NCBI GenBank assembly: GCA_001029715.1
Contig: CP011212.1
Coordinates: forward strand, 705,066 to 769,065
Source of the DNA: a candidate division TM6 bacterium GW2011_GWF2_28_16
Lineage (GTDB): Bacteria > Patescibacteriota > Microgenomatia > UBA1400 > PJMF01
Length of the DNA stretch: 64,000 nt
Reading direction: 5' to 3'
Made by a program: the position numbers and the translations under genes. Under the pieces are notes generated by a model. The model was not told the origin of the DNA and did not search any database. It was given only the letters and a program-made list of their open reading frames with translations. Every line of letters starts with the position of its first letter. The stretch's first letter is position 1. Of the stretch, positions 6,312 to 62,101 are shown piece by piece.

Positions 6312-6316
6312 TTAAT

Positions 6317-7324
6317 ATGTCAATCACTGCCCTTGATATCGGGACTCATTCGATCAAAATCGTCATTGCTAAAGATAGTAAAAACCAAACTATCCAAAAA
6401 GCAATTGAAGTTCCAAACAAATTAGGCATGGTTTCACCAAAAAATGATCAAGAAATTTTACAGTTTTCAGAAATGGTAAATAATCTTTTTCATGATTACA
6501 AACTAGACCAAAATGATGTTCGCTTGAGTCTGCCGGAGTACTTAGTCAACACTAAAGTGATTGAAATTCCTTTTTTAAACGATGCAGAATTAGCTTCTGC
6601 TATTGGTTGGCAAGCAGAACAAGCCATTCCAATTCCTAAAAACGATCTAACTCTTCAATATCAGGTTCTACAAAAACCAGAAAAGAAAACAGCCAATGCT
6701 ACCATGAAGGTTTTGCTGGTTGGCTCTTATAAGTCTTTGGTTGAAAAAATTAACAATGTTTTCCTCAATATTGGCATTGAAGCAACACTGATGGAAACCC
6801 AAGTTTTTTCCGTGATTCGTTCTTTAGATATTGATGGAAATGATCCAGAAACAATTGTTTTACATATGGGTGCCAGTGGGAATGACATTGCTGTCATCAA
6901 TGGAGGCATGTTTGAGTTTGTTTTTAATTCCAAAACTGGTAGCACCCTTATTGACGCTGCCATCGCTCAAAGTTTTAATTTAGATAATAAACAAGCTCAG
7001 GAATATAAAATTAACTATGGCCTAGATCAAACTCAGATGGAAGGCAAACTTTTCCAAATTATCTCTCCAATCGTTGACAACTTAATTATTGATTTGCAAA
7101 AAACCATTCGTTTTTTCACTCAAAATCATCCTGAACAAAAAATTAAAAGAGTAGTTCTATTAGGTGGTCCAGCTCAGATGAAGGGCTTGGTTGAAAGAAT
7201 CAGTAAAGCGTTAAATTTGGAAGTCATGCAAGCCGCTCCTTTTGCCAAAGCTAAGGGGCAAATCCCAGAAACTAACCAGCTGAGCTTTAGTGTCTGTATG
7301 GGTCTAATTGCCAGAAAACTATAA
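6317..7324 (+). CDS. pilM: Type IV pilus assembly protein PilM (actin-like ATPase fold)
   Basis: N-terminal ALDIGTHSIKIV, typical of the PilM/FtsA actin fold. 335 aa fits PilM rather than FtsA. It is followed by pilN- and pilO-like genes. Confidence 0.7.
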   Translation: MSITALDIGTHSIKIVIAKDSKNQTIQKAIEVPNKLGMVSPKNDQEILQFSEMVNNLFHDYKLDQNDVRLSLPEYLVNTKVIEIPFLNDAELASAIGWQAEQAIPIPKNDLTLQYQVLQKPEKKTANATMKVLLVGSYKSLVEKINNVFLNIGIEATLMETQVFSVIRSLDIDGNDPETIVLHMGASGNDIAVINGGMFEFVFNSKTGSTLIDAAIAQSFNLDNKQAQEYKINYGLDQTQMEGKLFQIISPIVDNLIIDLQKTIRFFTQNHPEQKIKRVVLLGGPAQMKGLVERISKALNLEVMQAAPFAKAKGQIPETNQLSFSVCMGLIARKL

Positions 7325-7332
7325 AAGAGCTA

Positions 7333-7881
7333 ATGATCAATATCAATTTCTTAACCAATCGAGTTAATCAAAAAGGCAAACAAAAAGAAAAAGATGTGAA
7401 GATTTTTCGCATTAGTACTTATGTTTTAATTTCTTTGATTGTTTTGATGGTGGCTGTTTTTGCTTTTAAACTTTGGAATAATTTACAAATTAGCAACACT
7501 GATAAAAAAATCAAAGAATACAAAGCTAGTATTTTAGGTCAAGAAACAACTGAAATTGGTTACTTAATTTTTGTTAATAAAATTAAAGTTATTAGTGAAA
7601 TTTATAAAAAACGTAGTAATAAACAAGAAGCAATGAATTACTTTGCAGATGTTTTTGGTGATAAAGCAGAAATTGCCGGCATGAGCTATCAGGAAGATCA
7701 GGGCGGATTAATCTTACAAATAGACAGTAGCAATGTTTTTGATTTGCAAGACGTTAATAATACCTTAGATTCTCAAGCATTGCGCCAAGAATATGAAAAA
7801 CTAGAAAAAAGCGTTTTGACCCGCACCGATACTGGCAACTATAAACTAACTCTTAAATTGGAACTGAAAACGAATGATTGA
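7333..7881 (+). CDS. pilN: PilN-like type IV pilus inner-membrane protein
   Basis: Single N-terminal TM, size and position after pilM. Overlaps the next gene by 8 nt. Confidence 0.5.
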   Translation: MININFLTNRVNQKGKQKEKDVKIFRISTYVLISLIVLMVAVFAFKLWNNLQISNTDKKIKEYKASILGQETTEIGYLIFVNKIKVISEIYKKRSNKQEAMNYFADVFGDKAEIAGMSYQEDQGGLILQIDSSNVFDLQDVNNTLDSQALRQEYEKLEKSVLTRTDTGNYKLTLKLELKTND

Positions 7882-8713
7882 AAAAAAAGGCGAATTTAAC
7901 TACAAGCTTTTTTGGAATACTCGCAAAGAACTAGTTCTAGCAATTCTATTTTTTGTAATTAGTGCAATGATACTTTTTATTGGTATTATTAGTCAGATAG
8001 CTCCAATAAGAGCTGACCTTGACCAACTTAAGTCGCATCAAGCTGAGCTAGATAAATTTGCTGAAAAATCCGCTCAACTTCAACAATTAGCCGCCGATCC
8101 AAATTCTAATCAATTTTCAGCTATTGATGAAGTTCTGCCGTCTCACAAGCCACTCTTGGAAATCCTTAGTAACCTTAATGCTGTCGCCAATAATTCTGAA
8201 GTTATCATTAAAAATTTTAGCCTCAATCCTGGAGAAATTGCTACTGATACCACCAAAGTTAAAAAGAGTAGTTCTGATCAAAAATATGACTATCTAGACT
8301 TAGATTTTAGCGTCAGCGGAGCACTCTGGAAAATTCAAAACTTCATTAACTTAATTGAACAAGTAACCCCAATTAGCACTATCACTAATATTTCAATCAG
8401 TCGTAACATCGATGAAGATAAGAATGCTCAAGCTCAAGCAGATCTCGTTCTGCGCACTTTTTACTTTACTCAACCAATTAAAACCACAATTACCAGTCCG
8501 TTGCCAGTAATCGCTGCTTCTGAAAGAAAAATCATTAGTAGCATTAACGAGCTAAGTCCAAATAATTTAGAAAAACAGGAAAATGTCATCAGTGGAGATA
8601 GAGGTAACTTGTTTGGAATACAGAATAAAACCGTTGAAGAGCTAGAACAAGAATTGATACAAGCCACAGAATCAGCAAATACAGCAACTGAATCGGTACA
8701 AACTGAGCAATAG
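7874..8713 (+). CDS. pilO: PilO-like type IV pilus inner-membrane protein
   Basis: N-terminal TM followed by a coiled-coil region (QLKSHQAELDKFAEKSAQLQQL). Third gene of the pilMNO arrangement. Confidence 0.45.
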   Translation: MIEKKGEFNYKLFWNTRKELVLAILFFVISAMILFIGIISQIAPIRADLDQLKSHQAELDKFAEKSAQLQQLAADPNSNQFSAIDEVLPSHKPLLEILSNLNAVANNSEVIIKNFSLNPGEIATDTTKVKKSSSDQKYDYLDLDFSVSGALWKIQNFINLIEQVTPISTITNISISRNIDEDKNAQAQADLVLRTFYFTQPIKTTITSPLPVIAASERKIISSINELSPNNLEKQENVISGDRGNLFGIQNKTVEELEQELIQATESANTATESVQTEQ

Positions 8714-31378: not shown

Positions 31379-34180
31379 ATGTCAGAAGATAACAAAAAAC
31401 AAACACCAAGCGTCAGCGTCGAAGAATTAGAGAAGGATGAAGAGATGATTGAAGAAGTTGAAGAGGCAGAAGAAGAAACAGAAAATGAAGTGGAGGATGA
31501 AGTTACAGAAACGACCGAAGCTACAAGTGAAATTTTGATCGAAACCCAAGAAGAAATTTCATCCAAAATGGGCACCATTGAAGAGAGCGCTTACGGAAAA
31601 CTCAAGCACACTTCCATCGTTAATGAGATGGAAAAATCTTACCTTGATTACGCAATGAGTGTCATTGTTTCTCGCGCTCTTCCTGACGTTCGTGATGGCC
31701 TTAAACCAGTCCACCGCCGTATTCTTTATTCCATGTTTAAATCCGGCATTCACTGGAACACTCCTTATAGAAAATCTGCTCGTATTGTTGGTGACGTTCT
31801 TGGTCGCTACCATCCACATGGTGACAGTGCAGTTTATATGGCCTTGGTCCGTTTAGCCCAAGAATTTAGTATGCGTTATCCATTGATCGATGGTCAGGGT
31901 AACTTTGGTTCAATTGACGGAGATAGCCCAGCTGCTATGCGTTACACTGAAGCTCGTAGTGCCAAAATCACCCAAGAACTTTTGGCTGATATTAACAAAG
32001 GTACAGTCGATTTCATTGACAACTTTGACGGTTCTACCAAAGAACCAACTGTTCTTCCAACCCGTATTCCTAACTTTTTGCTAATGGGTTCTGAGGGTAT
32101 TGCTGTGGGTATGGCTACTAAAATCCCACCTCATAATTTAGTTGAAACCTGCAACGCTATTACTGCCATGATCACCAAAGGCAAAGCTAGCACCGACCTT
32201 AAAATTGAAATTGGTGAAGAAAAACTCAGTTCAGATTCAGAATGTATTAGCGCTATTTTGCTAGCTGATCCAAATAGCCTAGCTGGCAAATTTGAAAGCG
32301 ATATTACTCACGAAGAATTGATGGAACACATTAAAGGACCAGATTTTCCAACTGCCGGTATTATCTACGATCAAAAATCTATTTCTGAGGCTTATCGAAC
32401 AGGCAGAGGTCGCATTGTTATTCGTGGTAAAGCCGCTATCGAAGAAGGTAAAAAAGATCAATTCATCATCGCTATCACAGAATTGCCATATCAGGTTAAT
32501 AAAGCTCGCTTGTTAATGAAAATTGCTGATTTAGTCCGCGATAAAAAAATCCTCGGTATTCGTAATTTACGAGATGACTCCGATCGTCAAGGCATGCAGA
32601 TTACCATCGAACTGAAAAAAGATGCTAGACCAAATGTAGTTCTCAACAAACTCTTTAAATATTCAGAGCTACAAAGCAGTTTTTCACTCAATATGGTTGC
32701 CCTCAATAGTGAAGGTACACCTTTATTGATGAACTTACGCCAAGTACTCCGTGAATACGTTATCCACCGCCAACTAGTAGTAGTTCGCCGTAGCCAAAAT
32801 GAACTCAAGGAGGCTCGCGACCGCGCTCACATTCTTGAAGGCTTAATCATTGCTTTGAATAATCTAGATGATGTCATTGATACCATCAGAAAATCCAAAG
32901 ACACTCCAACTGCACATGATTCCTTGATGAAGAAGTTTGGCTTGAGTGATATCCAGTCAACTGCCATTCTTGAAATGCAGCTCAAACGCCTTGCAGCTCT
33001 AGAGCGACAAAAAATTGAAGAAGAATATGCAGCCATCCAAGAAGCCATTGGCACCTTGATTCATTTACTCAATGATCCTGCCAAAGTATTGAAAAAAATC
33101 GCAGAAGAAACCAAAGAAATGGTCGATCTTTACGGAGATGAACGTCGCACTAAGATCATTAAAGGCAAAATTGGTGAATTCAATGAAGAAGATTTGATTG
33201 CTGAAGAATCAACTGTCATCACTTTGACTGAAAGTGGCTATATCAAACGTCTCAGTCCAGATGCTTTCCGCTCTCAATCTCGAGGTGGAAAAGGTAGCAA
33301 AGGCTTAAATATGAAAGCTGAAGATGTACTCAAATGCATCGTTACCTGCAACACTCATGACAATCTTTTTCTCTTTACCAATCAGGGTCGCGTTTTTGAG
33401 ATGAAATCCTACGAAATTCCAGACGCCAGCCGTCAAGCCAAGGGTACTGCCATTGTTAATATCCTTAATCTTAAGTCTGAGGAAAAAGTTTTATCTATCC
33501 TAGTCGTAGATCAAGAAGCTGACAAAGATAAGTTCATTACCTTGGCTACCAAAAATGGCTTAGTCAAGAAAACCGCTCTCAAACTTTTCAACAATATTCG
33601 TCAAAGTGGCATCGTGGCCATTATCCTCAATGAAGGCGACGAATTAGTCTGGGGCAAGATCACCACTGGCATGGATCACATTATGCTAATTACTCATGAT
33701 GGGAAATCAATTCGCTTCAGTGAAGAAGAAGTCAAATCTTCTCAAAGAGACACTAAGGGTGTTAAGGGAATTACTTTAAAAACTGGTGACTCCGTCATTG
33801 GCGTTGAGGTTTTTGAAGATAACAAAGAAGTTCTCAAAGAGAATAGCTTATTACTCATCACTGAAAATGGCATGGGCAAACGCACTCTTCTAGAGAGTTA
33901 TCCACTCCAAAAACGTTCCGGTCTTGGCGTCAAAGTCTCAGAAATCACCAAGCGTACCGGTAAAGTGGCCGCCGCCAAAATGGTTTCCGACCTCAATAAA
34001 GAAGTGGTCATTAGCACTAAACTGGGTAAAGCTATCAAAATGCCAATCAGCAAAAGTTCTATTCCTACTTTGACCAGACCCACTCAAGGAGTTATCCTAA
34101 TGAAAATGAGTGATAATGACCAAGTAGTGGCAGTGGCTTTAACCATTGAGGATGGTGACGAAGAGAACGAAATAAATTAG
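31379..34180 (+). CDS. gyrA: DNA gyrase subunit A with a polyacidic N-terminal extension
   Basis: Active-site [13 protein letters not shown]-like region, and a C-terminal beta-pinwheel with GyrA-box-like [10 protein letters not shown]. About 70 aa of Glu-rich N-terminus. Confidence 0.95.
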
Positions 34181-34476
34181 CTTGGTAAATTTATATTAAG
34201 CCATCTAATAATCTCGCTCTCTAATCTCTCCTCAGAGAAATTCGAAGAAAGATTATTAATCAAACGATCTATATTGCTTCTTTTTGTTACTAGATCGTTT
34301 TTTTTCAACCAATCTTGAAAATCATATTTAGAAACTAGAGGAGACTTTCGAACTCGAGAGTCTTTTGCAAAATAAATTTCCCAACACTTCTGGATAATTT
34401 GTTCTTTATCGATTCTTTTTTCGTCGTCTTCGCATGCAATAGCCTGATCAACGACTCTAAGTTTTTCTGCTTCCAC
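34177..34476 (-). CDS. Hypothetical protein
   Basis: 99-aa ORF convergent with gyrA. No recognisable motif. Confidence 0.35.
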
Positions 34477-34497
34477 GGTTATTCCTTCTTAATTTAG

Positions 34498-34571
34498 TGG
34501 ACCGAAGGGGACTCGAACCCCTGACCTCTTCTATGCCATAGAAGCGCTCTAGCCAACTGAGCTATCGGCCC
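34498..34571 (-). tRNA. tRNA-Ala (anticodon GGC)
   Basis: Reverse complement GGGCCGATAGCTCAGTTGGCTAGAGCGCTTCTATGGCATAGAAGAGGTCAGGGGTTCGAGTCCCCTTCGGTCCA. G3:U70 Ala identity pair. Anticodon loop AUGGCAU. CCA is not encoded. Confidence 0.85.
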
Positions 34572-34633
34572 ATATTTTAACAAAAGGAATTTTAGCATTG
34601 TCGAAGAGAAAAGCCAAGTCATAATTGACCAAA

Positions 34634-35569
34634 TTACATTTTAGAATGAGTTTTATCGTAAACCTTCTTAAGCTGCGGTTGAGTAATGTGGGTATAGATC
34701 TGAGTGGTGGCAATGTTTTTATGTCCCAACATCTCTTGCACATCACGCAAACCAGCACCGTTAATCAATAAATCAGTCGCAAAACTATGTCTAATTCCAT
34801 GAGGACTCAGTTTTACAGTCAATCTAGCTCTGCGAGCATAATGATCCACAATGCGCTGCACACTACGACTAGTTAAACGCATTTCTTCACCATCCATCAA
34901 TAGATCGGGCTTCTTGCCAGAATAACGAATAAAAATTGGTCGCCAGTTATCTTTCCTCGAGTTCATATAGCGCTCTAGCCACATAGCCGCCCTTTCGCTC
35001 AAAAAAACCACTCTTGGTCTACGACCTTTACCAATCACCCCAAATTCGCGTCGCTTCAGATCAATTTGATCGCGATTGAGCCCAACTAATTCACTAACAC
35101 GTAAGCCAGTAGAGAAGAGTACCTCAAGAATAGCCTTGTCTCTCGCCCCCTCTTTGCTGGCCAAGTCAGGCTGAGCCAAGAGACGTTCAATCTCCTCAAT
35201 ATTCACAAATTGCATATGAGTTGATTCGCCCTTAGGTAAATCAATTTTTTCTGGATGCAAAACCTCCTGATCATTTTTAGTTAGCCATTTGAACCAAGAG
35301 CGCAAAGCAATTACATGATAGCTTTGTGTCTTTTTTGATAGGGTTCTTGACATATCGTCACAGTAACGCGCTAGGTAAATCCGATATTTACGCAAAATAT
35401 CACGATCCAATTCTTTAAGGTCACCATGACCATCTTCCTTGAACCAAACGTTAAAACGCCTCAAATAATGGCTATAATTGCGGATAGTCAAGCGACTAAG
35501 GTTCTTTTCCACCTCCAAGGACTCTAAAAAATCAATCAAGGCGATATCTGGATTAGTTTTATTACTCAT
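34634..35569 (-). CDS. xerD: Tyrosine recombinase XerC/XerD family
   Basis: Xer-type core-binding N-terminus (LIDFLESLEVEKNLSRLTIRNYSHYLRRF). Catalytic C-terminus HGIRHSFATDLL and LGHKNIATTQIYTH. 311 aa. Confidence 0.8.
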   Translation of the reverse strand: MSNKTNPDIALIDFLESLEVEKNLSRLTIRNYSHYLRRFNVWFKEDGHGDLKELDRDILRKYRIYLARYCDDMSRTLSKKTQSYHVIALRSWFKWLTKNDQEVLHPEKIDLPKGESTHMQFVNIEEIERLLAQPDLASKEGARDKAILEVLFSTGLRVSELVGLNRDQIDLKRREFGVIGKGRRPRVVFLSERAAMWLERYMNSRKDNWRPIFIRYSGKKPDLLMDGEEMRLTSRSVQRIVDHYARRARLTVKLSPHGIRHSFATDLLINGAGLRDVQEMLGHKNIATTQIYTHITQPQLKKVYDKTHSKM

Positions 35570-37167
35570 TGCATTTACTTCCTTCTTTACTCTACAATAA
35601 ATTTAAGATTGATGCACTAAGGCTTGCATTTTTAATCAGCTCACAAGAGTTGATGTGTTTTTTTCTTCAAATTTTCAAAATTGTTATCAGACACTGGCAG
35701 ACCATCTAATATTCTGCTAGAAACGCTTTTTAATCATTTATTACTATAGATCAGTCTTTTTTTGTATATAGACCAAAACACTTAGCTCGCTGAGAAATAT
35801 AAGATTCATACCAAAAAGGACTTAAGCCTCGATCTAAAAAATATGTAATTCCAAGAAAGCAAAAGGGGAGACTGCCCCACCCATCGGTCTAATTTATTAT
35901 TTAAGTCCATTGTGCTGAAGCTCATTTCGCAAACTTAGCATCCATTTGAAAAATAAATTGTGAAATAAAAAAATGAATTATGAAAATATTTTTCATTATC
36001 TAAAGTGCTTAAGCTCATTTCACAACAGAAATTTAAAATATTATCACAATGGTCATAATCTCCGCGATTGCATTACCCATCAGACTCTCATTTATTTTAA
36101 AAAGTACTAAAAATGCTGGAAAGCGTTCTTAACCAGGTTTCAAGCTGATTAGTTGCTCATCTATGAAGAAAAAAGCCGATTTTGGGCTTCTAAGAGCCTT
36201 ACTAGAGGTAAATACCTTGATATATCAATATAATTACCAATTGATCACGATTGGAGTTAACTAAACAACCAGATAGAACCAGGCTAAATCAGCCAAAACT
36301 AGGAACAATTTAGGAAAATTAAGAATGGGCAAGCACTAGAGAGAATAAAGGCAAAAAAGAATTGTTAAATGCCTAAACACCAGAGTAAATGAAGGCAAAA
36401 GATAAATCGATTTAAAAACACCTCTCGGCTTAATTGATAGTTTATGTCGCAAAAGTTATATTGTGCGACATAAACTATCAGAAGAAAATAAACCCCCTAT
36501 CGTTGGAGTAGCAGTGGTTTAAGAACTTTCTTTTATATGGTATTCAATCTCTTTTACGCTCACACATCCATTCCCTTTAAACTTCCCTTAAGAAAAAAGC
36601 TAATTAACCCTCCGCAACCCCTCCCTGGGGATATGCCTATTCGGGTTTTTTATTGATTTATCAGGTCTTTTTACATATATATCTATCCAGAATAGAAGCA
36701 CCAGGCCAAATCAGCTGAGAAAATTGAACACTTTAATAGCTCGGAGCTATTGCTGTACCAGATGTAATACAGGCTAAATTTATTTTTGCATACTTTTGCA
36801 ACAAGAAAACTAATTTAACAGTATCAAACTATATCATTTCAGGCTATAAAGTCCTATAACTATTGAGTTTTCCACAATTTTCACGACCATATCAAACTAT
36901 ATCACTCTGCCCTGTCTCCCCATGTATCCAAAAAAATTGCTAGCTCTTCCCTGTTTATTTTTTATAATATTTTTTCTTTTTTTGGAGCTTTTTTCTTATT
37001 TAAGACTTATCATGCCAGATTAAAAAGAGTTTTTGAAAGACTTTTAATTCCTTTTTACTAGCTATGGCAGAAAACCCGAAAAACCAGCTCTACCCTGTCT
37101 GGTTTATAGGCAAAAAGGATTGGTACATAAATCTTTTTTAGATATTAGTCAAGTTGGGGGATTTCGA
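35570..37167. repeat. 1.6-kb ORF-free, repeat-rich non-coding region (perfect 16-bp palindrome at 36436-36479; several families of short direct repeats)
   Basis: No ORF of 60 aa or more on any strand. Palindrome GATAGTTTATGTCGCA-N12-TGCGACATAAACTATC. Direct repeats at 36269/36688, 35911/36004, 36824/36889, and a CTCYNCCCTGTYT motif at three sites (36905, 36943, 37088). Confidence 0.6.
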
Positions 37168-37935
37168 TTACTTGCCTGGAAACATCAGGATAAAGAGCAC
37201 TATCATCAGAATAGCCACTAGATTATATTCATTAACGGTATTTTTGAATAAACGACCCTTAAAGAAACTTTGCAAAACACTCAAACCAACATATAAGAAA
37301 GACATAATAAAAAGCGCTTGATTCCAAATTTGCATTGGCAAAAATGAAAATAGGATGGCTAATTCAGTAAGAATAAGAGTGAAAATAAGTGAATAAAGAG
37401 CAATTTCTTTGTCAATTTTTTGCTTCAATTCAATTGACCAAAGTGAAGCCAATACCAGAGGAAAATGAGAGATAAACATCAAGATAGCATTGAGATAAAA
37501 AGGCAAACGCAGTGAAAAAATAACATTACTAAACAATAAAGAAGTAATCATGATAAAAAACAGAGCCACAGCGTGCGCTGCATATAAAAGCTGGATAGTA
37601 CGACCCTTAGCCACGGAGAAAATATTTGAAGTCAAAAACAAAGCGTACATGCCAATGCCAAAGATAGCTACAATCACTAAGCGGGACCAAAACATCTCAG
37701 GTAAAAGAAAATAGAACAAAGACACAGAGCTAGCATAAAGAGCCGGAAATGGCACTATTGTTAACCATTCATGTGAATGAAGATCATCAGAGAGTGCCCA
37801 AGCAGAACTAAAATAAGAGATGAGTAAAAAAATTGCTGTCGCTAAATAACGCCATTCGAGTGGAATGTATTGAGTCGCCAAAAGACTCAGACTAAGTAAA
37901 ACAGAAACAATAACAAATTTTTCTCTTCGGCGCAT
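37168..37935 (-). CDS. Hypothetical polytopic membrane protein
   Basis: About 8 predicted TM helices. No motif recognised. Confidence 0.5.
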   Translation of the reverse strand: MRRREKFVIVSVLLSLSLLATQYIPLEWRYLATAIFLLISYFSSAWALSDDLHSHEWLTIVPFPALYASSVSLFYFLLPEMFWSRLVIVAIFGIGMYALFLTSNIFSVAKGRTIQLLYAAHAVALFFIMITSLLFSNVIFSLRLPFYLNAILMFISHFPLVLASLWSIELKQKIDKEIALYSLIFTLILTELAILFSFLPMQIWNQALFIMSFLYVGLSVLQSFFKGRLFKNTVNEYNLVAILMIVLFILMFPGK

Positions 37936-37939
37936 ATTA

Positions 37940-38494
37940 TTATTCTTCTAAAATATCACATGCTAAAAAAACATCTTCCACATCTTCATTATCTCTTAAG
38001 TTATCTGCCAATTCCATTAGTTTGACCAAATCCTCCTCGCTAACTGGAATTTTCATAGTTGGGATGAACTCCCCTTCTTGATTGCGTTCAAACATATATC
38101 TGGCGCTACCTGGAGAACCTAAAGAGCCACCGGCTTTACTCAAAGCAAAACGAATCTCAGAAGAGCTACGGTTGAGATTGTCAGTCAAAGCAACGATCAT
38201 CATCCCTACTCCACCTGGACCAAAACCCTCATAAACAATTTCCTGAATTTGGCTGGCATTCCCCTTGCCTAGAGCAACATCGATCGCCTTTTGAACTTTG
38301 GCGTTAGGCATATTTGCCATTCTGGCTTTATCGAGTATTAGACGTAAAGAAGGATTACTTTTTGGGTCGCCAGAATTAGCTTGTTTGGTAGCAGCTCTGA
38401 TCAAGCGAGACAGCTGACTGAAGATCTTGCTTTTGGCCTTATCTTGAGCCCCCTTACGATTTTTAATGTTATTCCATTTACTGTGACCTGACAT
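37940..38494 (-). CDS. yebC: YebC/PmpR (TACO1) family probable transcriptional regulator, short form
   Basis: MSGHSKWNNIKNRKGAQDKAKSKIFSQLSRLI is the highly conserved YebC N-terminus. 184 aa. Confidence 0.8.
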   Translation of the reverse strand: MSGHSKWNNIKNRKGAQDKAKSKIFSQLSRLIRAATKQANSGDPKSNPSLRLILDKARMANMPNAKVQKAIDVALGKGNASQIQEIVYEGFGPGGVGMMIVALTDNLNRSSSEIRFALSKAGGSLGSPGSARYMFERNQEGEFIPTMKIPVSEEDLVKLMELADNLRDNEDVEDVFLACDILEE

Positions 38495-40212: not shown

Positions 40213-40671
40213 TTAAGACTCGATAGCATAACGCTCAAATCTACTCAGAGTCATCTTTTCACCAATTTTACCACTGAGAGTTTTGATAACTAATTCGATT
40301 GTTTTTTCTGAATCCTTAATGGAATCCTGTTGCAATAAATCCTCAACGCTTTCTGCACCCATAGCAGCAACTTGCATAGCAATGTCACGCACCATTTGGC
40401 GGAATTCTTCATTAGCGGCTACAAAATCAGTTTCGCAAAGCATTTCCACCATAGCGGCAACCATGCCAGTGTTGTGAGTATAAGTGGCTATATAACCAAC
40501 CTTAGTCTCACGATCCTGAATCTTGTCTGCTTTAGCTAAACCTTTGGCCTCAACAGCAGCAACGGCTTTATCTAAATCGCCATCAGCTTCTTGCAAAGCT
40601 TTTTGACAATCTAAAATTCTAGCACCAGTAAGTTCTCTGAGTTTTTTGATTTGATCCATGGAAATAGGCAT
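40213..40671 (-). CDS. tsf: Elongation factor Ts (short, about 150-aa form)
   Basis: N-terminal UBA-like QIKKLRELTGARILDCQKALQEADGDLDKAV, TDFVAANEEF motif, AGGAGG RBS. Follows rpsB. Confidence 0.85.
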   Translation of the reverse strand: MPISMDQIKKLRELTGARILDCQKALQEADGDLDKAVAAVEAKGLAKADKIQDRETKVGYIATYTHNTGMVAAMVEMLCETDFVAANEEFRQMVRDIAMQVAAMGAESVEDLLQQDSIKDSEKTIELVIKTLSGKIGEKMTLSRFERYAIES

Positions 40672-40788: not shown

Positions 40789-41757
40789 TTATTTGCGATC
40801 TGCGCGACCGGCTTTGTAGGCAGCGGTGATTTGATCAACAAAAAATTTAATACTTTTAACGGCGTCATCATTGCCTGGCAAAACAAATTGCACTGGTCTT
40901 GGATCGCTATCTGAGTCGATTAAAGCAATTACTGGAACATTAACATTATTTGCTTCAGCGACGACGATTCTTTCTTTCTTTGGATCGACTACAAAAATAC
41001 AATCTGGCTTGCTCTTCAAACCTTTAAGTCCACCAAAGAAACGCTCTAGCTTAATTTGTTCTTTTTCAAGTTGGACGCGTTCATACTTGGTATAACCCTT
41101 ATATCTATCAGTTGCCAAACCTTCACGGATTTCTTCCATACGTTTGATAGATTTACTGACTTGAGGCCAGTTGGTTAACATACCACCCATCCAACGAGCA
41201 TTGATGTAAAAGCAAGAAGCGTCCAAAGCAGCCTCTTTGATAACTTCACGTGCTTGTTTCTTAGTACCGACTAAGACTAGGGTTTTGCCCTCTTTGGCGA
41301 GGTTGTAGACATAGGAATAAGCTTCTTCTAAAAGACCGGCGACCTTTGGCAAATCAAAAAGATGGATACCATCTTTTTCACTATAAATATATTCATCCAT
41401 TTTTGGATGCCATTTACTGGCTTTGTGACCAAAGTGACAACCCAGCTCAAGCATTTCTTGAAGATCAAATTCTGGATTTTTAGTAGCAACTGGTCTTACT
41501 TCGGTTTTAGTTTCTTCAGTTTTGGCTTCTTCTGCTTTTACTTCGACTTTGACTTCTTCAACTTTTGGAGTTTCGATTTTAGGAGTAGCAACTGGAGCTG
41601 CTTCAACTTTGACAGCGGCTTTCTTAGGAGCAACTTTCTCAGCGGCAACCTTAGCTGGAGCTTTTTTGACTACTTTCTTAGCGGCTGGTTTAACGGCAAC
41701 CTTAGCGGTAGTTTTTTTAACTGAAACTTTTTTGGCGGTCTTTTTGACTTCTGCCAT
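40789..41757 (-). CDS. rpsB: 30S ribosomal protein S2 with an about 100-aa Lys/Ala/Val-rich N-terminal extension
   Basis: [24 protein letters not shown] S2 signature. N-terminus is [16 protein letters not shown]-type low complexity. Confidence 0.9.
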   Translation of the reverse strand: [322 protein letters not shown]

Positions 41758-41863
41758 AATTTTTGTCCTTTTTTTATTTCCGCTTTTTAAAGCGAAAAAC
41801 GGTGCTTAGAGCTAAATAAGGATTGGCTCTAAGGCACACAAGTTTGTAATTGGTTGGATTATA

Positions 41864-42916
41864 TCATGGGCTGAGGTCTTTTCCAACAATAAACTGGTTA
41901 AAATCACCTAGGATTTTTTGAGGAAAAGACCTTAGTAAATCCAAAGCATTCGCCATCAAGGAAACCACCGTCATCGGTCCAACGCCATTCGGCACCGGCG
42001 TAATGAAGTCTGCTTTATTTAAACAACTCGGTAAATCGATATCACCCTGTGGTTCACCGACATCAATAATAATACTGTGATCGGCAATCAAATCGCCTTT
42101 GATTAAGTTTTTCTGACCAGTGGCACTGATAATGACGCGAAAATCTGATAGGGATTTTTTTTGTTCAATCAGTTCTGCTAATCCCTGCTTACCAACTAAT
42201 TTAACTTCGCATTTATTTTTAGATACCTGCGACTCGCTAACAGCAACTTGGCAAACCTCGCCAAAAGTTTGTGGAACTGTGGCACCCTTTTGCATTAGAT
42301 TTTGCATGTGCCAATATAAAGGTCTTCCTAATAAATCTGATTGACCAATAATCAAAACTTTTTCTGTTAAGTATGAAAAATCTGAATCTACATTAGCTCG
42401 ATAATCTTTGAGAATTGATAAAACTGCACGGGCTGTGGCTGGCAAAACCATTTGATCTTGCATCCAAGTGCCATTTTTAATTGCTTCTAAAGTAGCTGGC
42501 GCCAAACCATCCACATCTTTATTCACACCGTGAGATTTTTTGGTGGCAATTTTTGAAACTAGGCTTCCCCACCACTCGTTAAAATCGCCGTTTGGCACGC
42601 TTTCTAGCCATTTTTTTGTCCACGGTTTTTGAATAATAATGCCAGTCACGCTGGGGTCAGCATTGAGTTCTTCAATATATTTTTGAATCTCTTCAACTGG
42701 ACTAGCAAAAGAAAATTCTTTAGCTTGATAAGCAATTCCCAAGCTCTCAGCGGTTTGTTTTTTAAGTGAAGTATAAAGAATTGAAGCCTGATCTTCATGG
42801 AAAAAAATTGCCACCACCTTGGGATAGATTCCCTTAGCATGATAGGCCATTACTTTTTGCTTGAGCTTGAGCTCCTTTTGCTTGGCTAGTTTTTCGCCGT
42901 CAAAAATTATGGTCAT
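41864..42916 (-). CDS. folD: Bifunctional methylenetetrahydrofolate dehydrogenase/cyclohydrolase FolD (with an internal insertion)
   Basis: IIFDGEKLAKQ N-terminus, DVDGL, ITPVPNGVGPMTV. 350 aa versus about 285 typical. Confidence 0.85.
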   Translation of the reverse strand: MTIIFDGEKLAKQKELKLKQKVMAYHAKGIYPKVVAIFFHEDQASILYTSLKKQTAESLGIAYQAKEFSFASPVEEIQKYIEELNADPSVTGIIIQKPWTKKWLESVPNGDFNEWWGSLVSKIATKKSHGVNKDVDGLAPATLEAIKNGTWMQDQMVLPATARAVLSILKDYRANVDSDFSYLTEKVLIIGQSDLLGRPLYWHMQNLMQKGATVPQTFGEVCQVAVSESQVSKNKCEVKLVGKQGLAELIEQKKSLSDFRVIISATGQKNLIKGDLIADHSIIIDVGEPQGDIDLPSCLNKADFITPVPNGVGPMTVVSLMANALDLLRSFPQKILGDFNQFIVGKDLSP

Positions 42917-42925
42917 AATGTTGTT

Positions 42926-44251
42926 TTACCAAGCAAACAAAGGAAAAGTCTTTGCCATTTCCTTAACTTCCTTACGAATTGCCAAAAGAGTTTCGTCTTT
43001 AATCATACGAGCTTTGAAATCTTTCAGAAAGACGCGGCGCGTGGTTTTTAGAGCTGGCAATTGTTCGCCTTTTATATGGTCAACTACCCTGGCAATCCAT
43101 TGAGCAATTTTTGTCATCTCTTGCTCTTTCATACCTCTGGTAGTAACTAGTGGCGTACCGATACGAATGCCCGACGGATAGAAAGGTGAACAAGGTTCAC
43201 CTGGAATAGTATTGCGGTTAGCATAGATCCCCGCCACATCCATAGCAAAAGCCACCTGCGTGCCAAAACCATCGCCAAAAGAAGTCAAATCGATCAAAAT
43301 TAAGTGGTTTTCTGTACCATCACCGACCAATTTGAGACCTTCTTGTTGCAAAGCAGTAGCCATGGCATCGGCATTCTTGCGGATTTGTTTTCCATATTCA
43401 ATAAATCCTGGTCTTGCGGCTTCGCCTGCAGCTATCGCTATGGCCGCAGTGTTTTCATTATGTGGACCACCTTGCAAAGCCGGAAAGACGGCTTTGTCAA
43501 TCTTATCAGCCAAATCTGGATCTTTTTCCAAACCCTTGTTTGTAACCATAATCATCGCTCCACGCGGGCCTCTAAAAGTTTTATGCGTGGTCGACATAAC
43601 AATGTGCGCATGAGGTACGGGACTCTGATGCTCTCCTGCGATAACCAAGCCAGTAATATGAGAAATATCAGCCAATAAATAAGCACCCACTTCGTCGGCA
43701 ATCTCTGCAAATTTCGCAAAATCCAAAACAAAAGGATAAGCCGTGGTACCAGCGATAATTAGTTTTGGTTTATGTTCAAGTGCTAAGCGACGTAATTCTT
43801 TGAAATCAATGCGTGCATTTTCATCGAGACCGTATTGAATTGAATTGAAATAACGACCAGAGAAAGTCACTTTTGGATGTCCATGAGTTAAATGCCCACC
43901 GCTAGAAAGAGCCAAACCCATAATGGTGTCCCCTTCTTCAAGTAAAGCAAACTCTACAGCACTATTTGCTGGTGAGCCAGAATAAGGTTGGACGTTGACG
44001 TGAGGCACTTTGAAAAGTTCTTTCAAGCGCTTTTGAGCTTCAATCTCTATTTCATCAATTACCTGATTACCTTCGTAATAGCGGCGTTTAGGATAACCTT
44101 CGGCATATTTGCTAGATAAACAAGAACTGAGGACGCTGCGAACAGCCTCTGAGCTATGATTTTCTGAAGGAATTAAGCCAATCATTTCTGTTTGGCGCTC
44201 TTCTTCTTTTTTTACTAAATCGAAAATTGGATCTTGGTTCTGTTTTTGCAT
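42926..44251 (-). CDS. glyA: Serine hydroxymethyltransferase
   Basis: SKYAEGYPKRRYYEG, SGGHLTHG, and the PLP-lysine region STTHKTFRGPRGA. Confidence 0.95.
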   Translation of the reverse strand: MQKQNQDPIFDLVKKEEERQTEMIGLIPSENHSSEAVRSVLSSCLSSKYAEGYPKRRYYEGNQVIDEIEIEAQKRLKELFKVPHVNVQPYSGSPANSAVEFALLEEGDTIMGLALSSGGHLTHGHPKVTFSGRYFNSIQYGLDENARIDFKELRRLALEHKPKLIIAGTTAYPFVLDFAKFAEIADEVGAYLLADISHITGLVIAGEHQSPVPHAHIVMSTTHKTFRGPRGAMIMVTNKGLEKDPDLADKIDKAVFPALQGGPHNENTAAIAIAAGEAARPGFIEYGKQIRKNADAMATALQQEGLKLVGDGTENHLILIDLTSFGDGFGTQVAFAMDVAGIYANRNTIPGEPCSPFYPSGIRIGTPLVTTRGMKEQEMTKIAQWIARVVDHIKGEQLPALKTTRRVFLKDFKARMIKDETLLAIRKEVKEMAKTFPLFAW

Positions 44252-53448: not shown

Positions 53449-53594
53449 TTGACCAAAGCCTTTAGTTGTCCTATAATAGTCCAGAATGCAAAAACAAAAT
53501 GCAAAAGCTCCAGCTTTTCATCATCACTCCTCTATCTAATTGGGGTATCTTTTTGCGTTTCATTAAATAGGTCCCCAATAAGGGGATTTTTTAT
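53449..53594 (+). promoter_or_regulatory. Candidate hisS attenuator: consensus sigma70 promoter, His-codon leader peptide, and alternative antiterminator/terminator hairpins
   Basis: TTGACC-17 nt-TATAAT at 53449-53477. A 17-codon ORF at 53486-53539 contains CAT-CAT-CAC. ATTGGGG (53539-53545) can pair with CCCCAAT (53573-53579). CCCC/GGGG terminator stem is followed by TTTTTTATTTT (53572-53594). hisS starts at 53632. Confidence 0.5.
53486..53539 (+). CDS. Putative hisS leader peptide MQKQNAKAPAFHHHSSI
   Basis: Three consecutive His codons immediately upstream of alternative hairpins. It starts 8-9 nt after the -10 element, so it would be near-leaderless. Confidence 0.4.
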   Translation: MQKQNAKAPAFHHHSSI

Positions 53595-61929: not shown

Positions 61930-62101
61930 AAGTGACTTAATTTTAGCACTAAAAATCTGATTTTTAGCTAAGAAATTTTCTTGCTAAATTAGTCCTATAA
62001 TATTGACTTTTAGATCTATTTTGATATAATCCTGTTGGAAGTATCATTGCTTTGCGACCATATGCGGTTGCAAAAATCCAAGCGATGATACTGGAGGAAA
62101 G

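Follow-up and report, generated by a model that had tools for sequence, protein, structure and literature searches.

We propose that a 28-bp palindrome in a non-coding gap upstream of a xer gene, inside a DNA-level control region, serves the XerA/C/D-like recombinase encoded by that gene as a dif-like recombination site. This reading is tentative, and a probability of about 40% was assigned to it. The gap (35570-37167) was analysed within the window, i.e. the whole 64,000-nt stretch of DNA under study, which belongs to a groundwater genome of Candidatus Pacebacteria (Microgenomates, CPR), and was compared with the equivalent loci of related genomes.

A conserved non-coding locus upstream of xer

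No ORF of 60 aa or more overlapped positions 35570-37167 on either strand under the standard code, hence the ORF-free 1.6-kb stretch of the original prediction was borne out. Reading TGA or TAG as sense yielded nothing new above 90 aa in the gap, and reading TAA as sense gave one 276-codon frame, a reading that was implausible; no plausible gene was regained by these alternative genetic codes. A 33-aa hydrophobic ORF (36922-37023) was rejected as a conserved small ORF, its start codon being lost in the close relative L021. An assembly artefact was ruled out because the gap sequence was 100% identical across ~17 independent assemblies.

The elements bordering the gap were as follows:

34634..35569, minus strand: xer, whose 311-aa product is a tyrosine recombinase of the Xer family, at equal distance from XerC and XerD and near XerA
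37112..37139, unstranded: AT-rich hairpin with flanking A- and T-runs, seen in the sequence; the hairpin is kept in close relatives
37168..37935, minus strand: gene of a DUF5656 membrane protein, which borders the gap upstream and is conserved there

The xer gene lies on the minus strand with its start codon at 35569, which puts the gap on the promoter (upstream) side of xer and downstream of the DUF5656 gene; an earlier placement of the gap downstream of xer was on the wrong side. A tRNA gene was indeed present nearby, but the suggested link to tRNA-Ala proved incidental. The hairpin at 37112..37139 is likely the terminator of the DUF5656 gene.

The alignment to related genomes called for by the original prediction placed the block at the same syntenic position across the Microgenomates. 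The order TPR-YebC-DUF5656-gap-xer-gyrA was kept in ~63 species, with an ORF-poor gap of 0.9-2 kb and Xer identity down to 56%. An equivalent ORF-poor gap of 1-2 kb between the DUF5656 gene and xer was recorded in ~68 species and at least 120 metagenome contigs, and the carriers of the locus were uncultured Microgenomates (CPR) sequences, about 190 among those listed. The part at 36268-36968 was aligned by nhmmer to more than 30 species, invariably on the same strand, and ~700 nt could be aligned between species whose flanking proteins were only 66-77% identical. The GC content of the gaps ranged from 25 to 45% across species, and gyrB, gyrA and holB were found among the neighbours. The gap is a real non-coding locus held at one syntenic position.

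The core palindrome

The palindrome and the elements next to it were the following:

36414..36428, minus strand: purine-rich motif and T-run CCGAGAGGTGTTTTT, ~20 nt after the palindrome
36444..36471, unstranded: core 28-bp palindrome ATGTCGCAAAA-GTTATA-TTGTGCGACAT, the proposed dif-like Xer core site
36492..36509, minus strand: hairpin and T-run just upstream of the palindrome, where some relatives have species-specific GA-rich/CT-rich hairpins

On the xer-sense strand the palindrome reads ATGTCGCACAA-TATAAC-TTTTGCGACAT, in an 11-6-11 arrangement with 10 of 11 arm positions symmetric; dif/Xer core sites consist of two imperfect inverted arms of ~11 bp around a centre of 6-8 bp (11 bp for XerS), and the palindrome has this geometry. 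The arms in the window lineage were lengthened to perfect 16-nt repeats (36436-36479). The previously reported inverted repeat GATAGTTTATGTCGCA / TGCGACATAAACTATC was thus confirmed as perfect (36436-36451 and 36464-36479), and it extended to 20 nt at 95%.

What was observed directly for the core site is how it is built, how well it is conserved, its linkage to xer and its uniqueness within the window and the contigs listed. The motif was expected 0 times by chance and occurred once in the 64-kb window. Of 70 sequences that had been recovered via xer, independently of the palindrome, 68 contained the 24-mer GTCGCACAATAWWACTTTTRCGAC with no more than 3 mismatches. The exact pattern was found in at least 120 metagenome contigs, each carrying exactly one copy, including four contigs of 0.79-1.19 Mb (exact-match scan, among the matches listed). 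In a set of contigs found by the DNA pattern alone, among the matches listed, xer lay 0.2-5.5 kb downstream of the palindrome and in the same orientation in all 77 contigs with a detectable xer. The protein-recovered set showed the usual orientation of the site relative to xer in 63 of 68 species and a flipped one in 5. The flip appears to be confined to the palindrome itself, since the DnaA box retained its usual orientation in those 5 species.

Per-position conservation was at least 0.91 in the arms and 0.51-0.86 at centre positions 11-13; conserved arms around a variable centre fit a recombinase site. The left arm with the adjacent CAAT was better conserved than the right arm. The pair 4:19 (n=70) was C-G in 36 sequences, C-A in 28, T-G in 5 and T-A in 1, i.e. 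1 compensatory versus 33 one-sided changes, and such independent variation of the half-sites fits protein-bound duplex DNA.

The palindrome matched E. coli dif at 17 of 28 positions in the 11-6-11 register, a score that, for a site fixed in advance, ranks it among the top 13 of 128,000 window positions, and B. subtilis dif at 16 of 28 (hand count). Twelve other positions in the AT-rich window matched or beat that 17/28 score, and the palindrome was the best dif match in only 4 of 67 relatives' loci. Taken alone, the similarity to dif is weak.

Motifs of the GGAGRAGGG type occurred at the equivalent place after the palindrome in other species. KOPS/SRS-like FtsK motifs beside the site were rejected: only 19 of 113 contigs had the strict pattern G[AG]GNAG[AG]G past the palindrome, and those G-rich motifs that lay nearest pointed away from the site. 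Hairpin enrichment upstream of the palindrome was modest (mean z ~ -1.1, both strands), and a universal terminator at that place was dismissed, a T-run being found in only 12 of 70 sequences. No viral contig carried the palindrome, so a phage or IMEX attP bearing the site was discarded. A fimS-like inverton was also rejected, as ~17 assemblies and 3 of the sister strain shared one orientation. The long-range inverted repeats in the gap were AT-rich and 74-88% matched.

Motifs and repeats around the palindrome

Further elements of the gap are given below:

35578..35619, minus strand: xer-proximal conserved block, promoter-like with an RBS (TAGTGCATCAAT...TTGTAGAGT...AAGGAAG), kept in 6 close relatives
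35680..35763, minus strand: conserved block F (AAAAAGACTGAT...TAGCAGAA...TCTGC...GTCTGATAA), from the alignment of 6 close relatives
35912..36025, unstranded: strain-specific duplication spaced by 93 bp, GTGCTKAAGCTCATTTCRCAA twice (35912 and 36005), in a poorly conserved part of the gap
36169..36231, minus strand: conserved block E (TTGATATATCAA, GGTATTTACC), with a terminator-like hairpin and T-run at its end
36270..36294, plus strand: direct-repeat copy containing CCAGGCTAA, with the locus-specific motif TTAGCCTGG/CCAGGCTAA
36638..36651, minus strand: conserved block C, AAAAAACCCGAATA; on the plus strand the 3' half of a terminator-like hairpin, then a T-run
36688..36716, plus strand: second direct-repeat copy (CACCAGGCCAAATCAGCT)
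36778..36803, minus strand: block B, TGTTGCAAAAGTATGCAAAAATAAAT, a third, degenerate half-site copy (GTYGCAAAAGT) with inverted repeat I4, from the close-relative alignment
36822..36904, minus strand: upstream motif cluster with two TGATATAGTTTGATA repeats (36822-36836 and 36890-36904)
36851-36860, minus strand: TTATAGGAC of the upstream cluster; read on the plus strand, a -10-like element GTCCTATAAC
36868-36876, minus strand: DnaA-box-like TGTGGAAAA of the upstream cluster, with one mismatch to the canonical box
36878-36885, minus strand: CGTGAAAA of the upstream cluster
36905-36917, 36944-36956 and 37088-37100, minus strand: three copies of ACAGGGNAGAG, the reverse complement of CTCYNCCCTGTYT

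The repeat families described in the original prediction were all present where they had been placed: TATCAAACTATATCA twice (36822-36836, 36890-36904), CTCYNCCCTGTYT three times (36905, 36944, 37088), a direct-repeat pair of 25-29 nt (36270-36294, 36688-36716) and GTGCTKAAGCTCATTTCRCAA twice (35912, 36005). The last of these, the GTGCT...CAA pair, turned out to be a strain-specific duplication, one copy being missing in the 94%-identical strain L012; the part of the gap that holds it was not conserved in other species and could not be aligned in L021-L025. By chance, 0 palindromes and 0.34 copies of TGATATAGTTTGATA would be expected in the window; the latter was absent elsewhere in the 64 kb. 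A genome-wide or REP-like repeat was rejected, as TTAGCCTGG, the TGATATAGT repeat and the palindrome were restricted to the gap within the window.

In more distant species, a copy of the palindrome's left arm was found at the place equivalent to the xer-proximal block. The copy, TGTCGYAMAAT, lay 12-320 nt upstream of the xer start in ~45 species and abutted a TTGAC(A/T)-17-TAnnnT promoter in at least 13 of them. The pattern TGTCGYAHAAT was rejected as a general promoter motif, with 8 matches in the window versus 6.4 expected and no enrichment. Where a contig extended far enough past the palindrome, a second left-arm copy was recorded downstream in 74% of cases (among the matches listed).

Each TGATATAGTTTGATA repeat is a pair of TGnTATAGT-like units in 10-bp phase, and the first ACAGGGNAGAG copy directly abuts the TGATATAGT repeat. 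TGATATAGTT was found in 54 of 70 species, TGTGGATAAC in 28 and TGTGGAAAAC in 24; the last two followed the repeat at a constant position, 25-60 nt away. The canonical DnaA box TGTGGATAA was exact in 28 of 70 species, with extra boxes being sporadic. Contigs selected by the palindrome (among the matches listed) carried the repeat in 88% of cases and a DnaA box with at most 1 mismatch in 91% (exact in 71%). The spacing between repeat and palindrome varied from 166 to 570 nt among species.

The 10-mer AAAACCCGAA of block C was present in 45 species at about -190 from the palindrome, and the plus-strand hairpin was found there. The TTAGCCTGG/CCAGGCTAA motif occurred in both orientations in most Pacebacteria gaps, and at least 10 species had hairpins of the GCCGTTT...TTTAGARGCC type, similar to that of block E, at 300-400 nt past the palindrome. 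No known family accounts for the repeat motifs.

The recombinase

The xer product scored 249.5 bits against the NCBIfam model of XerC, 249.1 against XerD and 210.8 against XerA, all under the cut-offs, and 119 bits against XerS. Integron integrase (IntI) models gave 101.9 bits (cut-off 265) and 54.7 bits (cut-off 435); an integron (intI with attI) was rejected, as the recombinase was far below both. The alignment with E. coli XerD (1a0p) spanned the catalytic region and placed LKKVY where XerD has LRQLH, i.e. KK in place of the RQ motif by which XerD contacts FtsK-gamma. XKX is a mark of XerA (PMC2958812). Judged by these sequence comparisons, the recombinase would fall outside both XerC and XerD; it resembles XerA, the type in which one recombinase acts alone. 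Its equidistance from XerC and XerD is compatible with one Xer paralogue per genome and does not prove it.

Alternative explanations

It was considered somewhat unlikely that the palindrome is an operator of a dimeric transcription factor and the gap an outsized promoter or regulatory region. Such a factor would occupy the full palindrome and, at the xer promoter, the lone left-arm copy next to the -35, while DnaA and other proteins on the upstream motifs would govern xer and perhaps short local transcripts. The left-arm 12-mer that abuts a well-formed promoter in at least 13 species holds the classic position of an activator or repressor site, the left arm with CAAT is conserved above the right arm, and the non-terminus position poses no difficulty. 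Promoter-like elements, TGnTATAGT and GTCCTATAA, are also present in the gap, GTCCTATAA being found at two further places in the window, one of them (53468) upstream of a gene, and the DnaA box lies just downstream of the -10-like element GTCCTATAAC, as in DnaA-repressed promoters. However, 24 bp were near-invariant in more than 180 sequences with Xer identity down to ~45-55%, a degree of conservation far stricter than is usual for operators but common in the core sites of recombinases. With 17-18 bp between their centres, the half-sites are unsuited to a helix-turn-helix dimer on one DNA face, no promoter follows the main palindrome, and no candidate regulator gene is linked to the site except YebC, a protein that is truncated in the window and for which no such site is known. 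A second alternative, one or more novel ncRNAs on the xer-sense (window minus) strand, was judged unlikely. One candidate would run from the TGATATAGT element (~36900) to the T-run past the palindrome (~36414) with the palindrome as its terminal hairpin, and another from the palindrome to the block E terminator (~36169). The TGATATAGT element fits an extended -10, hairpins with T-runs occur on the minus strand at 36509-36492 and 36191-36171, and terminator-like hairpins lie 300-400 nt past the palindrome in 18 of 70 species. The ~700 nt alignable despite diverged flanking proteins, the GA-rich/CT-rich hairpins ahead of the palindrome in some species, the CT-rich and GA-rich flanks that could enclose it and the pair -1:24 (T-A 31, T-G 28, C-G 5), compatible with RNA pairing, also point to an RNA. 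Against it, an outer stem enclosing the palindrome was rejected on a duplex z-score of only -0.5 on both strands, the modest hairpin enrichment was equal on both strands, and the pair 4:19 would be a C-A mismatch on the xer-sense strand in 28 of 70 sequences, with a single compensatory change. The copy number, order and orientation of the motifs differ by lineage, a change that a folded RNA tolerates poorly: block C lies at -190 or +170, CCAGGCTAA is on both strands and the repeat-palindrome distance is far from constant. The GOLLD/ROOL-like RNA suggested in the original prediction received no support from the Rfam covariance searches it had called for, which at the gathering score returned only tRNAs in the window and 8 related loci; when E values up to 10 were admitted, rli51 scored highest in the gap (22.6 bits versus 48 needed), on the palindrome stem only. 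RNAalifold gave 0 consensus pairs on 12 divergent sequences, in a poor alignment, ARAGORN found no tmRNA in the window, and RNase P, tmRNA, SRP and 6S RNA were rejected by eye, as the conserved blocks were without their universal motifs.

A chromosomal origin, or the terminus, of an ordinary bidirectionally replicating chromosome was regarded as very improbable and was rejected on the skew and the absence of dnaA. The exact DnaA boxes, the 10-bp phase of the TGATATAGT repeats, the GC content of the gaps and the neighbouring gyrB, gyrA and holB would suit an origin, and to this extent the iteron-type origin raised earlier had a basis. However, cumulative GC skew fell monotonically over the 64 kb. 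Orientation-independent GC3 skew in the window was -0.20 to the left and -0.185 to the right of the gap, and in 30 of 31 species its sign did not differ between the two flanks; therefore, the gap is not the terminus. A bacterial oriC has a cluster of DnaA boxes with an AT-rich unwinding element; here the DNA is AT-rich and a single box was conserved. The DnaA signature RDH[ST]T[VI] was found neither in the window nor, for 80 loci, at distances up to 8 kb, and a sign change of the skew, as expected at oriC, was not seen. The terminus or recombination-site region proposed earlier held for the Xer-core build, the uniqueness and the gene linkage but failed for the terminus. It is slightly more improbable still that the locus is both origin and terminus of a chromosome replicating in one direction. 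The DnaA box, the phased TGATATAGT repeats and AT-rich DNA would then fire a single fork in the xer-sense direction, which would circle the ~1-Mb chromosome and end at its start, so that a dif-like site and its recombinase gene would naturally lie beside the origin. This arrangement would explain the DnaA box, the dif-like site, the gyrB/gyrA/holB neighbourhood and the lack of a sign change, and the skew tests are compatible with it because the skew would never change sign anywhere. Least probable of all was a decayed integrated element or prophage, for which the recombinase would have been the integrase and the repeats would mark att sites, or a set of frameshifted genes, both of which had been raised in the original prediction. 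A tyrosine recombinase gene near a tRNA gene, direct repeats ~420 bp apart flanking the palindrome and additional genes inserted in the gap of some species are in line with an element. However, recombinase, gap and both flanks are syntenic lineage-wide in the conserved block described above, the GC content is not anomalous and no viral contig has the site. The conserved parts are short nucleotide motifs rather than degraded reading frames, and no alternative genetic code regained an ORF.

The proposed dif-like site and related systems

The preferred reading is that the gap would be a conserved cluster of DNA-level cis-elements functionally belonging to the adjacent xer, with xer and the palindrome forming an XerS/difSL-like xer/site module; the gene and the site were linked across the lineage (77/77 and 63/68), as such a module demands. 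We infer binding and cleavage of the site, autoregulation and a role of DnaA at the locus. Two recombinase protomers would bind the arms, and strand exchange at the borders of the centre would resolve chromosome dimers. Activation may proceed without the FtsK-XerD contact, and we propose that the terminus position would then not be needed. The left-arm copy beside the -35 of the xer promoter may let the recombinase control its own synthesis. The upstream block, with the TGATATAGT repeats, the DnaA box, CGTGAAAA, TTATAGGAC and CCAGGCTAA, would serve as accessory or regulatory DNA for DnaA and further proteins.

Several observations count against a dif site. The palindrome does not lie at a terminus or GC-skew switch, which weighs against dif because the bacterial dif sites known to us are at the terminus. 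The distance to xer is variable, whereas the xerS/difSL pair is tight; 5 of 68 sites are flipped; and a second left-arm copy at a promoter is more typical of a transcription factor. Moreover, a core site needs ~30 bp, and the dif-like model leaves at least 1 kb of non-coding DNA, the DnaA box and other motifs unaccounted for.

Archaeal XerA is active independently of FtsK, and in Sulfolobus dif lies outside the fork-fusion zones. The XKX-type C-terminal motif (here KK) in place of the XerD RQ, the 11-6-11 arrangement with few arm mismatches and the conserved flanking sequences are shared with the archaeal XerA/dif system. Archaeal dif sites were predicted in a similar fashion and share 14-18 of 28 positions with bacterial dif (PMC2958812), compared with 17/28 to E. 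coli dif here. In contrast, the host here is bacterial, the archaeal system requires no gene linkage, the dif of Thermococcales is in the termination region (PMC2958812), and no DnaA box or iteron-like repeats have been reported beside archaeal dif.

The XerS/difSL systems of streptococci and lactococci comprise a single Xer recombinase linked to its site (PMC5357621, PMC1914069), xerS adjoining difSL (PMC5357621). The present locus likewise places one Xer-family recombinase beside a unique, highly conserved, imperfectly palindromic site with A4/T4 tracts in the inner arms (TTTCCGAAAA...TTTTCTTGAAA in difSL, GTCGCAAAA...TTGTGCGAC here). However, the Microgenomates protein is much nearer to XerC/XerD/XerA (211-250 bits) than to XerS, the arms enclose 6 bp rather than 11, the site is 0.2-5.5 kb from the gene and not immediately adjacent, and the locus is off the GC-skew switch amid at least 1 kb of further conserved motifs. 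The 28-bp length, the 11-6-11 arrangement and the 17/28 and 16/28 identities are in common with XerCD/dif of E. coli and B. subtilis, and the one copy per contig (among the matches listed) recalls the one copy per chromosome; unlike in those systems, the locus has a single Xer-type gene that cannot be assigned to C or D and is without the RQ motif, and the site is away from the terminus.

In the plasmid sites cer and psi, host proteins bind accessory DNA that extends for a few hundred bp on one side of a Xer core (PMC5357621). One-sided accessory DNA also accompanies the proposed Xer core here, and iteron-like direct repeats with a DnaA box beside a resolution system are reminiscent of plasmid maintenance regions. 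In contrast to plasmid sites, the locus is chromosomal, syntenic over a class-level lineage and has no Rep gene, and a spacing of upstream motifs and core that varies from 166 to 570 nt would be unsuited to a fixed synaptic architecture like that of cer. A long conserved ORF-free region (conserved total 0.5-0.8 kb) in streamlined genomes is a feature shared with GOLLD, ROOL, HEARO, OLE and raiA, whereas the missing covariance-model match and consensus structure and the unfixed order and orientation of the motifs set the gap apart from large ncRNAs.

Significance

The literature searched held nothing relevant on a CPR dif site or a Microgenomates ncRNA, and we know of no earlier description of such a CPR dimer-resolution system. 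If the palindrome is a Xer site, a large CPR lineage would thereby have its system for resolving chromosome dimers defined, and bacteria would offer a case in which one XerA-like recombinase is linked to a site that does not lie at the skew switch. It would also bear on the coupling of recombination to segregation in ultra-small cells with a reduced division machinery. For Microgenomates genomes in metagenomes, the 24-nt motif offers a ready landmark that occurs once. Irrespective of the mechanism, chromosomes of only ~1 Mb retain, at a single syntenic position, 1-2 kb of non-coding sequence that carries a DnaA box and several near-invariant motifs, and this retained gap is an unexplained, testable element of CPR chromosome biology.

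The intergenic gap and its conservation

The gap was bounded by the start codon of xer and the stop codon of a DUF5656 membrane-protein gene, and it adjoined the xer promoter rather than, as originally predicted, the downstream end of the gene. The main features were as follows.

34177-34476: 99-aa ORF
34497-34571: tRNA-Ala
34634-35569, minus strand: xer, Xer recombinase gene
35570-37167: gap
36436-36451 and 36464-36479: arms of the perfect inverted repeat, extending to 20 nt at 95%
36444-36471: 28-bp core of the palindrome
36822-36836 and 36890-36904: copies of TGATATAGTTTGATA
37168-37935, minus strand: DUF5656 membrane-protein gene

No ORF of 60 aa or more was found in the gap by the ORF scan, in agreement with the original prediction, and reading TGA or TAG as sense added nothing above 90 codons. 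The inverted repeat and all four predicted repeat families were recovered. One of these, the GTGCT...CAA pair, was identified by alignment of close relatives as a duplication specific to the strain, in a stretch of the gap that is not conserved. Within the 64-kb window, the palindrome motif, TGATATAGTTTGATA and the locus-specific motif TTAGCCTGG were confined to the gap. Misassembly was excluded, since the 1598 bases were identical in ~17 independent assemblies and 94% identical in the sister strain; the region as described was real. A strongly hydrophobic 33-aa small ORF, MYPKKLLALPCLFFIIFFLFLELFSYLRLIMPD, was noted at 36922-37023 (plus strand); it is probably not a gene, because its start codon was not kept in the close relative L021.

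Exact protein matches assigned the window to a groundwater Candidatus Pacebacteria genome (Microgenomates, Patescibacteria/CPR; GCA_003543755.1 and JGI/ENA assemblies of Rifle samples). The neighbours were housekeeping genes (holB, gyrB, DHH phosphoesterase, gyrA, the 99-aa ORF, tRNA-Ala, xer, the gap, DUF5656, yebC, TPR protein, tsf, rpsB, folD and glyA). A protein-guided scan with one genome per species yielded 80 loci with Xer identities from 92% to 56%. The order TPR-YebC-DUF5656-gap-xer-(gyrA) was retained in ~63 of these, where DUF5656 and xer were separated by 0.9-2 kb with few or no ORFs, and larger gaps held inserted genes. In nhmmer searches, for which the queries were the gap of the window and a profile built from six close relatives, ~36268-36968 could be aligned in more than 30 species. 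Every hit fell in the gap and had the same strand, and the signal was strongest around the palindrome. The comparison with related genomes that had been proposed as a check thus found the block conserved in the same syntenic place. Synteny and cross-species alignment together ruled out frameshifted genes, as well as the decayed mobile element offered by the original prediction, which was left as the least probable of all the explanations. The locus is lineage-wide, syntenic and non-coding.

Several local peculiarities were recorded. Between one and six ORFs of up to 690 aa were inserted in the gaps of eight species (L025, at locus positions 6056-7994, L043, L047, L060, L070, L075, L077 and L081), on one side of the conserved motifs (DUF5656 to repeat block) or on the other (palindrome to xer). 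Two of the ORFs in L077 each terminated ~15 nt or less from a copy of the palindrome left arm. The gyrA-xer interval (34200-34600) showed 63-80% identity with indels between two strains otherwise ~97% identical, and both the 99-aa ORF and tRNA-Ala fell in it. This ORF had no family matches and was detected in only one more distant species, L022, at 49% identity. Identity to the sister strain dropped to 75-89% over folD (41864-42916) and glyA (42926-44251), against 95-100% on either side (window 41800-44000), which looks like a recombination or gene-replacement tract. Some housekeeping proteins were of unusual size: Tsf was only 152 aa long (40213-40671), RpsB (322 aa, 40789-41757) carried a ~100-aa Lys/Ala/Pro-rich N-terminal extension, and the truncated YebC (184 aa, 37940-38494) matched only positions 1-137 of a 245-position model.

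Motif organization of the gap

The arrangement of the gap was derived from k-mer and motif mapping across 70 sequences.

Motif plan of the gap in the sense of xer (window minus strand)
1. DUF5656 terminator hairpin
2. ACAGGGNAGAG, three copies in the window
3. TGATATAGTTTGATA, two copies in the window; its 10-mer TGATATAGTT in 54 species
4. TTGTGGA(T/A)AACT, 25-60 nt past TGATATAGTTTGATA; matches the canonical DnaA box TGTGGATAA in 28 species and differs from it by one mismatch in 24, among them that of the window
5. CGTGAAAA, TTATAGGAC and CCAGGCTAA/TTAGCCTGG modules, variable in number and orientation
6. AAAAACCCGAAT, 45 species
7. Palindrome
8. Purine-rich motif and T-run
9. Variable stretch
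10. Block E (36169-36231) and terminator-like hairpin
11. xer promoter region

Close relatives aligned as near-identical islands with indel-rich DNA between them. The distance from repeat to palindrome fell to 166-220 nt in distant lineages, and some blocks changed sides, AAAAACCCGAAT being found at +170 rather than -190 from the palindrome. The motif GTCCTATAA(Y) occurred at three window sites, 36851-36860, 53467-53477 and 61992-62000 (plus strand). Because at 53467 it makes up TGTCCTATAAT, 155 nt upstream of a gene, this motif may represent the standard -10 region in the organism. The one-mismatch DnaA box of the gap began 8 nt past the copy at 36851-36860.

The palindrome

Of the 70 sequences recovered through xer, 68 contained the search motif of the palindrome, the 24-mer GTCGCACAATAWWACTTTTRCGAC, with no more than 3 mismatches.

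Conservation along the palindrome 24-mer
Positions 0-10: GTCGCACAATA, at least 0.91
Positions 11-13: variable centre, 0.51-0.86
Positions 14-18: CTTTT, at least 0.97
Position 19: G alternating with A, 0.59
Positions 20-23: CGAC, at least 0.96

Read as ATGTCGCACAA-TATAAC-TTTTGCGACAT, it forms an 11-6-11 site with 10 of 11 arm positions symmetric. Pair 4:19 occurred as C-G (36), C-A (28), T-G (5) and T-A (1), showing that the arms vary independently; pairs 0:23 and 1:22 were broken without compensation, and the perfect 16-nt arms of the window were lost even in 90%-identical relatives. Because the arms change independently and their full length is not kept, duplex DNA bound by protein accounts for the pattern better than a hairpin does. 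The states of pair -1:24 (T-A 31, T-G 28, C-G 5) would also suit RNA.

A metagenome collection scanned with the 24-mer alone gave at least 120 contigs, four of them of 0.79-1.19 Mb, each with a single palindrome; no viral contig carried it. In all 77 listed contigs with a detected xer, this gene lay downstream of the palindrome in the same orientation at 0.2-5.5 kb, and DUF5656 was found in at least 89 palindrome-selected contigs. Among those listed, the upstream repeat was present in 88% of the contigs with room for it, the DnaA box in 91% at no more than 1 mismatch (71% exact), and a second left-arm copy downstream of the palindrome in 74%. In the genome set, 5 of the 68 species carried the palindrome in flipped orientation with respect to xer.

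In ~45 species the left-arm copy, ATGTCGCACAAT or close variants, preceded the xer start by 12-320 nt, and in at least 13 it directly abutted a TTGAC(A/T)-17-TAnnnT promoter. In other species TTGACA lay 15-18 nt upstream of the YAMAAT of the copy, which could therefore itself be a -10 element there. A role as a general promoter motif of the genome was rejected, as the window scan showed no enrichment (8 hits against 6.4 expected). The simplest reading would be a single protein recognising the palindrome and the xer promoter alike. An inverted right-arm-like TTTTACGAC or TGTGCGACA followed the xer-proximal copy after 27-57 nt in L085 (locus 7682, gap coordinate 3188), L067, L081 and L098, and a DnaA box followed it directly in L065 and L094; such arrangements may be wider, degenerate second sites.

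The recombinase and comparison with dif

The Xer protein scored 249.5 bits on the XerC and 249.1 bits on the XerD equivalog model, both below cut-off, and 210.8 on the archaeal XerA model, just under its cut-off of 220; scores on XerS, integron integrase and invertase models were far lower. The XerD-specific RQ motif is the part contacted by FtsK-gamma. An alignment with E. coli XerD (1a0p) ran from residue 8 to 304, covered the conserved catalytic region and placed LKKVY where E. coli XerD has LRQLH. As the Figure 1 legend of PMC2958812 gives RQX as the mark of XerD and XKX as that of XerA, the enzyme is of the Xer type, lacks the motif specific to XerD and resembles the single-recombinase kind. 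Residues 11-305 also aligned (E = 5.5e-29) to the 401-residue chain 14 of PDB 9i5v, labelled 'Ribosome-associated translation inhibitor RaiA'; either that chain is mislabelled or a Xer-like protein was in that ribosome preparation.

The palindrome has the 11-6-11 geometry of dif (PMC5357621, PMC2958812). In this register the plus strand of the 28-bp core matched E. coli dif at 17 of 28 positions and, by hand count, B. subtilis dif at 16 of 28. In the window, 13 of ~128,000 positions reached at least 17 matches to E. coli dif, and among 67 related loci the palindrome ranked first in only 4. The similarity is therefore meaningful only for a site chosen beforehand on other grounds (~1e-4 per placement, a few placements allowed), and no better than that. 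A comparable search led to the acceptance of archaeal dif sites that matched at 14-18 of 28 positions (PMC2958812), and xerS adjoins difSL as a single module (PMC5357621).

Replication context and alternative explanations

Cumulative GC skew, proposed as a whole-genome check and here run over the 64 kb, fell steadily, and the suggested terminus was not seen at the locus. Third codon positions were used to tell strand effects apart from those of gene orientation; the orientation-independent GC3 skew was -0.20 left of the gap and -0.185 right of it, and its sign was equal on both flanks in 30 of 31 related loci. No DnaA signature was found in the window or within 8 kb in the 80 loci. Equal skew on both sides and the missing DnaA signature put the locus in the interior of a replichore, where xer runs in the direction of the fork; this speaks most strongly against oriC and a classical dif site. 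An origin or terminus was thus considered highly improbable. A coincident origin and terminus on a unidirectionally replicating chromosome was rated slightly less probable still. Strand-independent GC3 skew stayed at ~-0.19 throughout 1-64000, so replication appears to proceed from right to left across the entire window; 38 of its 58 genes lay on the minus strand, and most genes, including xer, would be co-directional with the fork.

The known structured RNA proposed earlier did not materialize: apart from tRNAs, Rfam returned nothing for either the window or eight relatives, and at E up to 10 the sole match on the palindrome was a chance match of its stem. RNAalifold predicted no pairs for twelve divergent sequences, whose alignment was poor outside the anchors. 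Hairpins upstream of the palindrome were modestly enriched, equally on both strands, with a T-run following in 12 of 70 sequences, and pairing between the CT-rich and GA-rich flanks did not exceed the level expected from composition (z = -0.5). The gap is likely to be transcribed to some extent, since terminator-like hairpins accumulate 300-400 nt past the palindrome (18 of 70; two were marked in the window). Since the motifs are flexible in number, order and orientation, they are better read as DNA sites than as parts of a single folded RNA. Taken together, the RNA tests weakened the case for one or more novel ncRNAs, which we regarded as unlikely. An operator and promoter region of a putative regulator was held to be a little less doubtful. 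We tentatively proposed, with a probability of about 0.40, that the palindrome would be a dif-like core site linked to xer and embedded in a control region that acts at the DNA level and contains a DnaA box.
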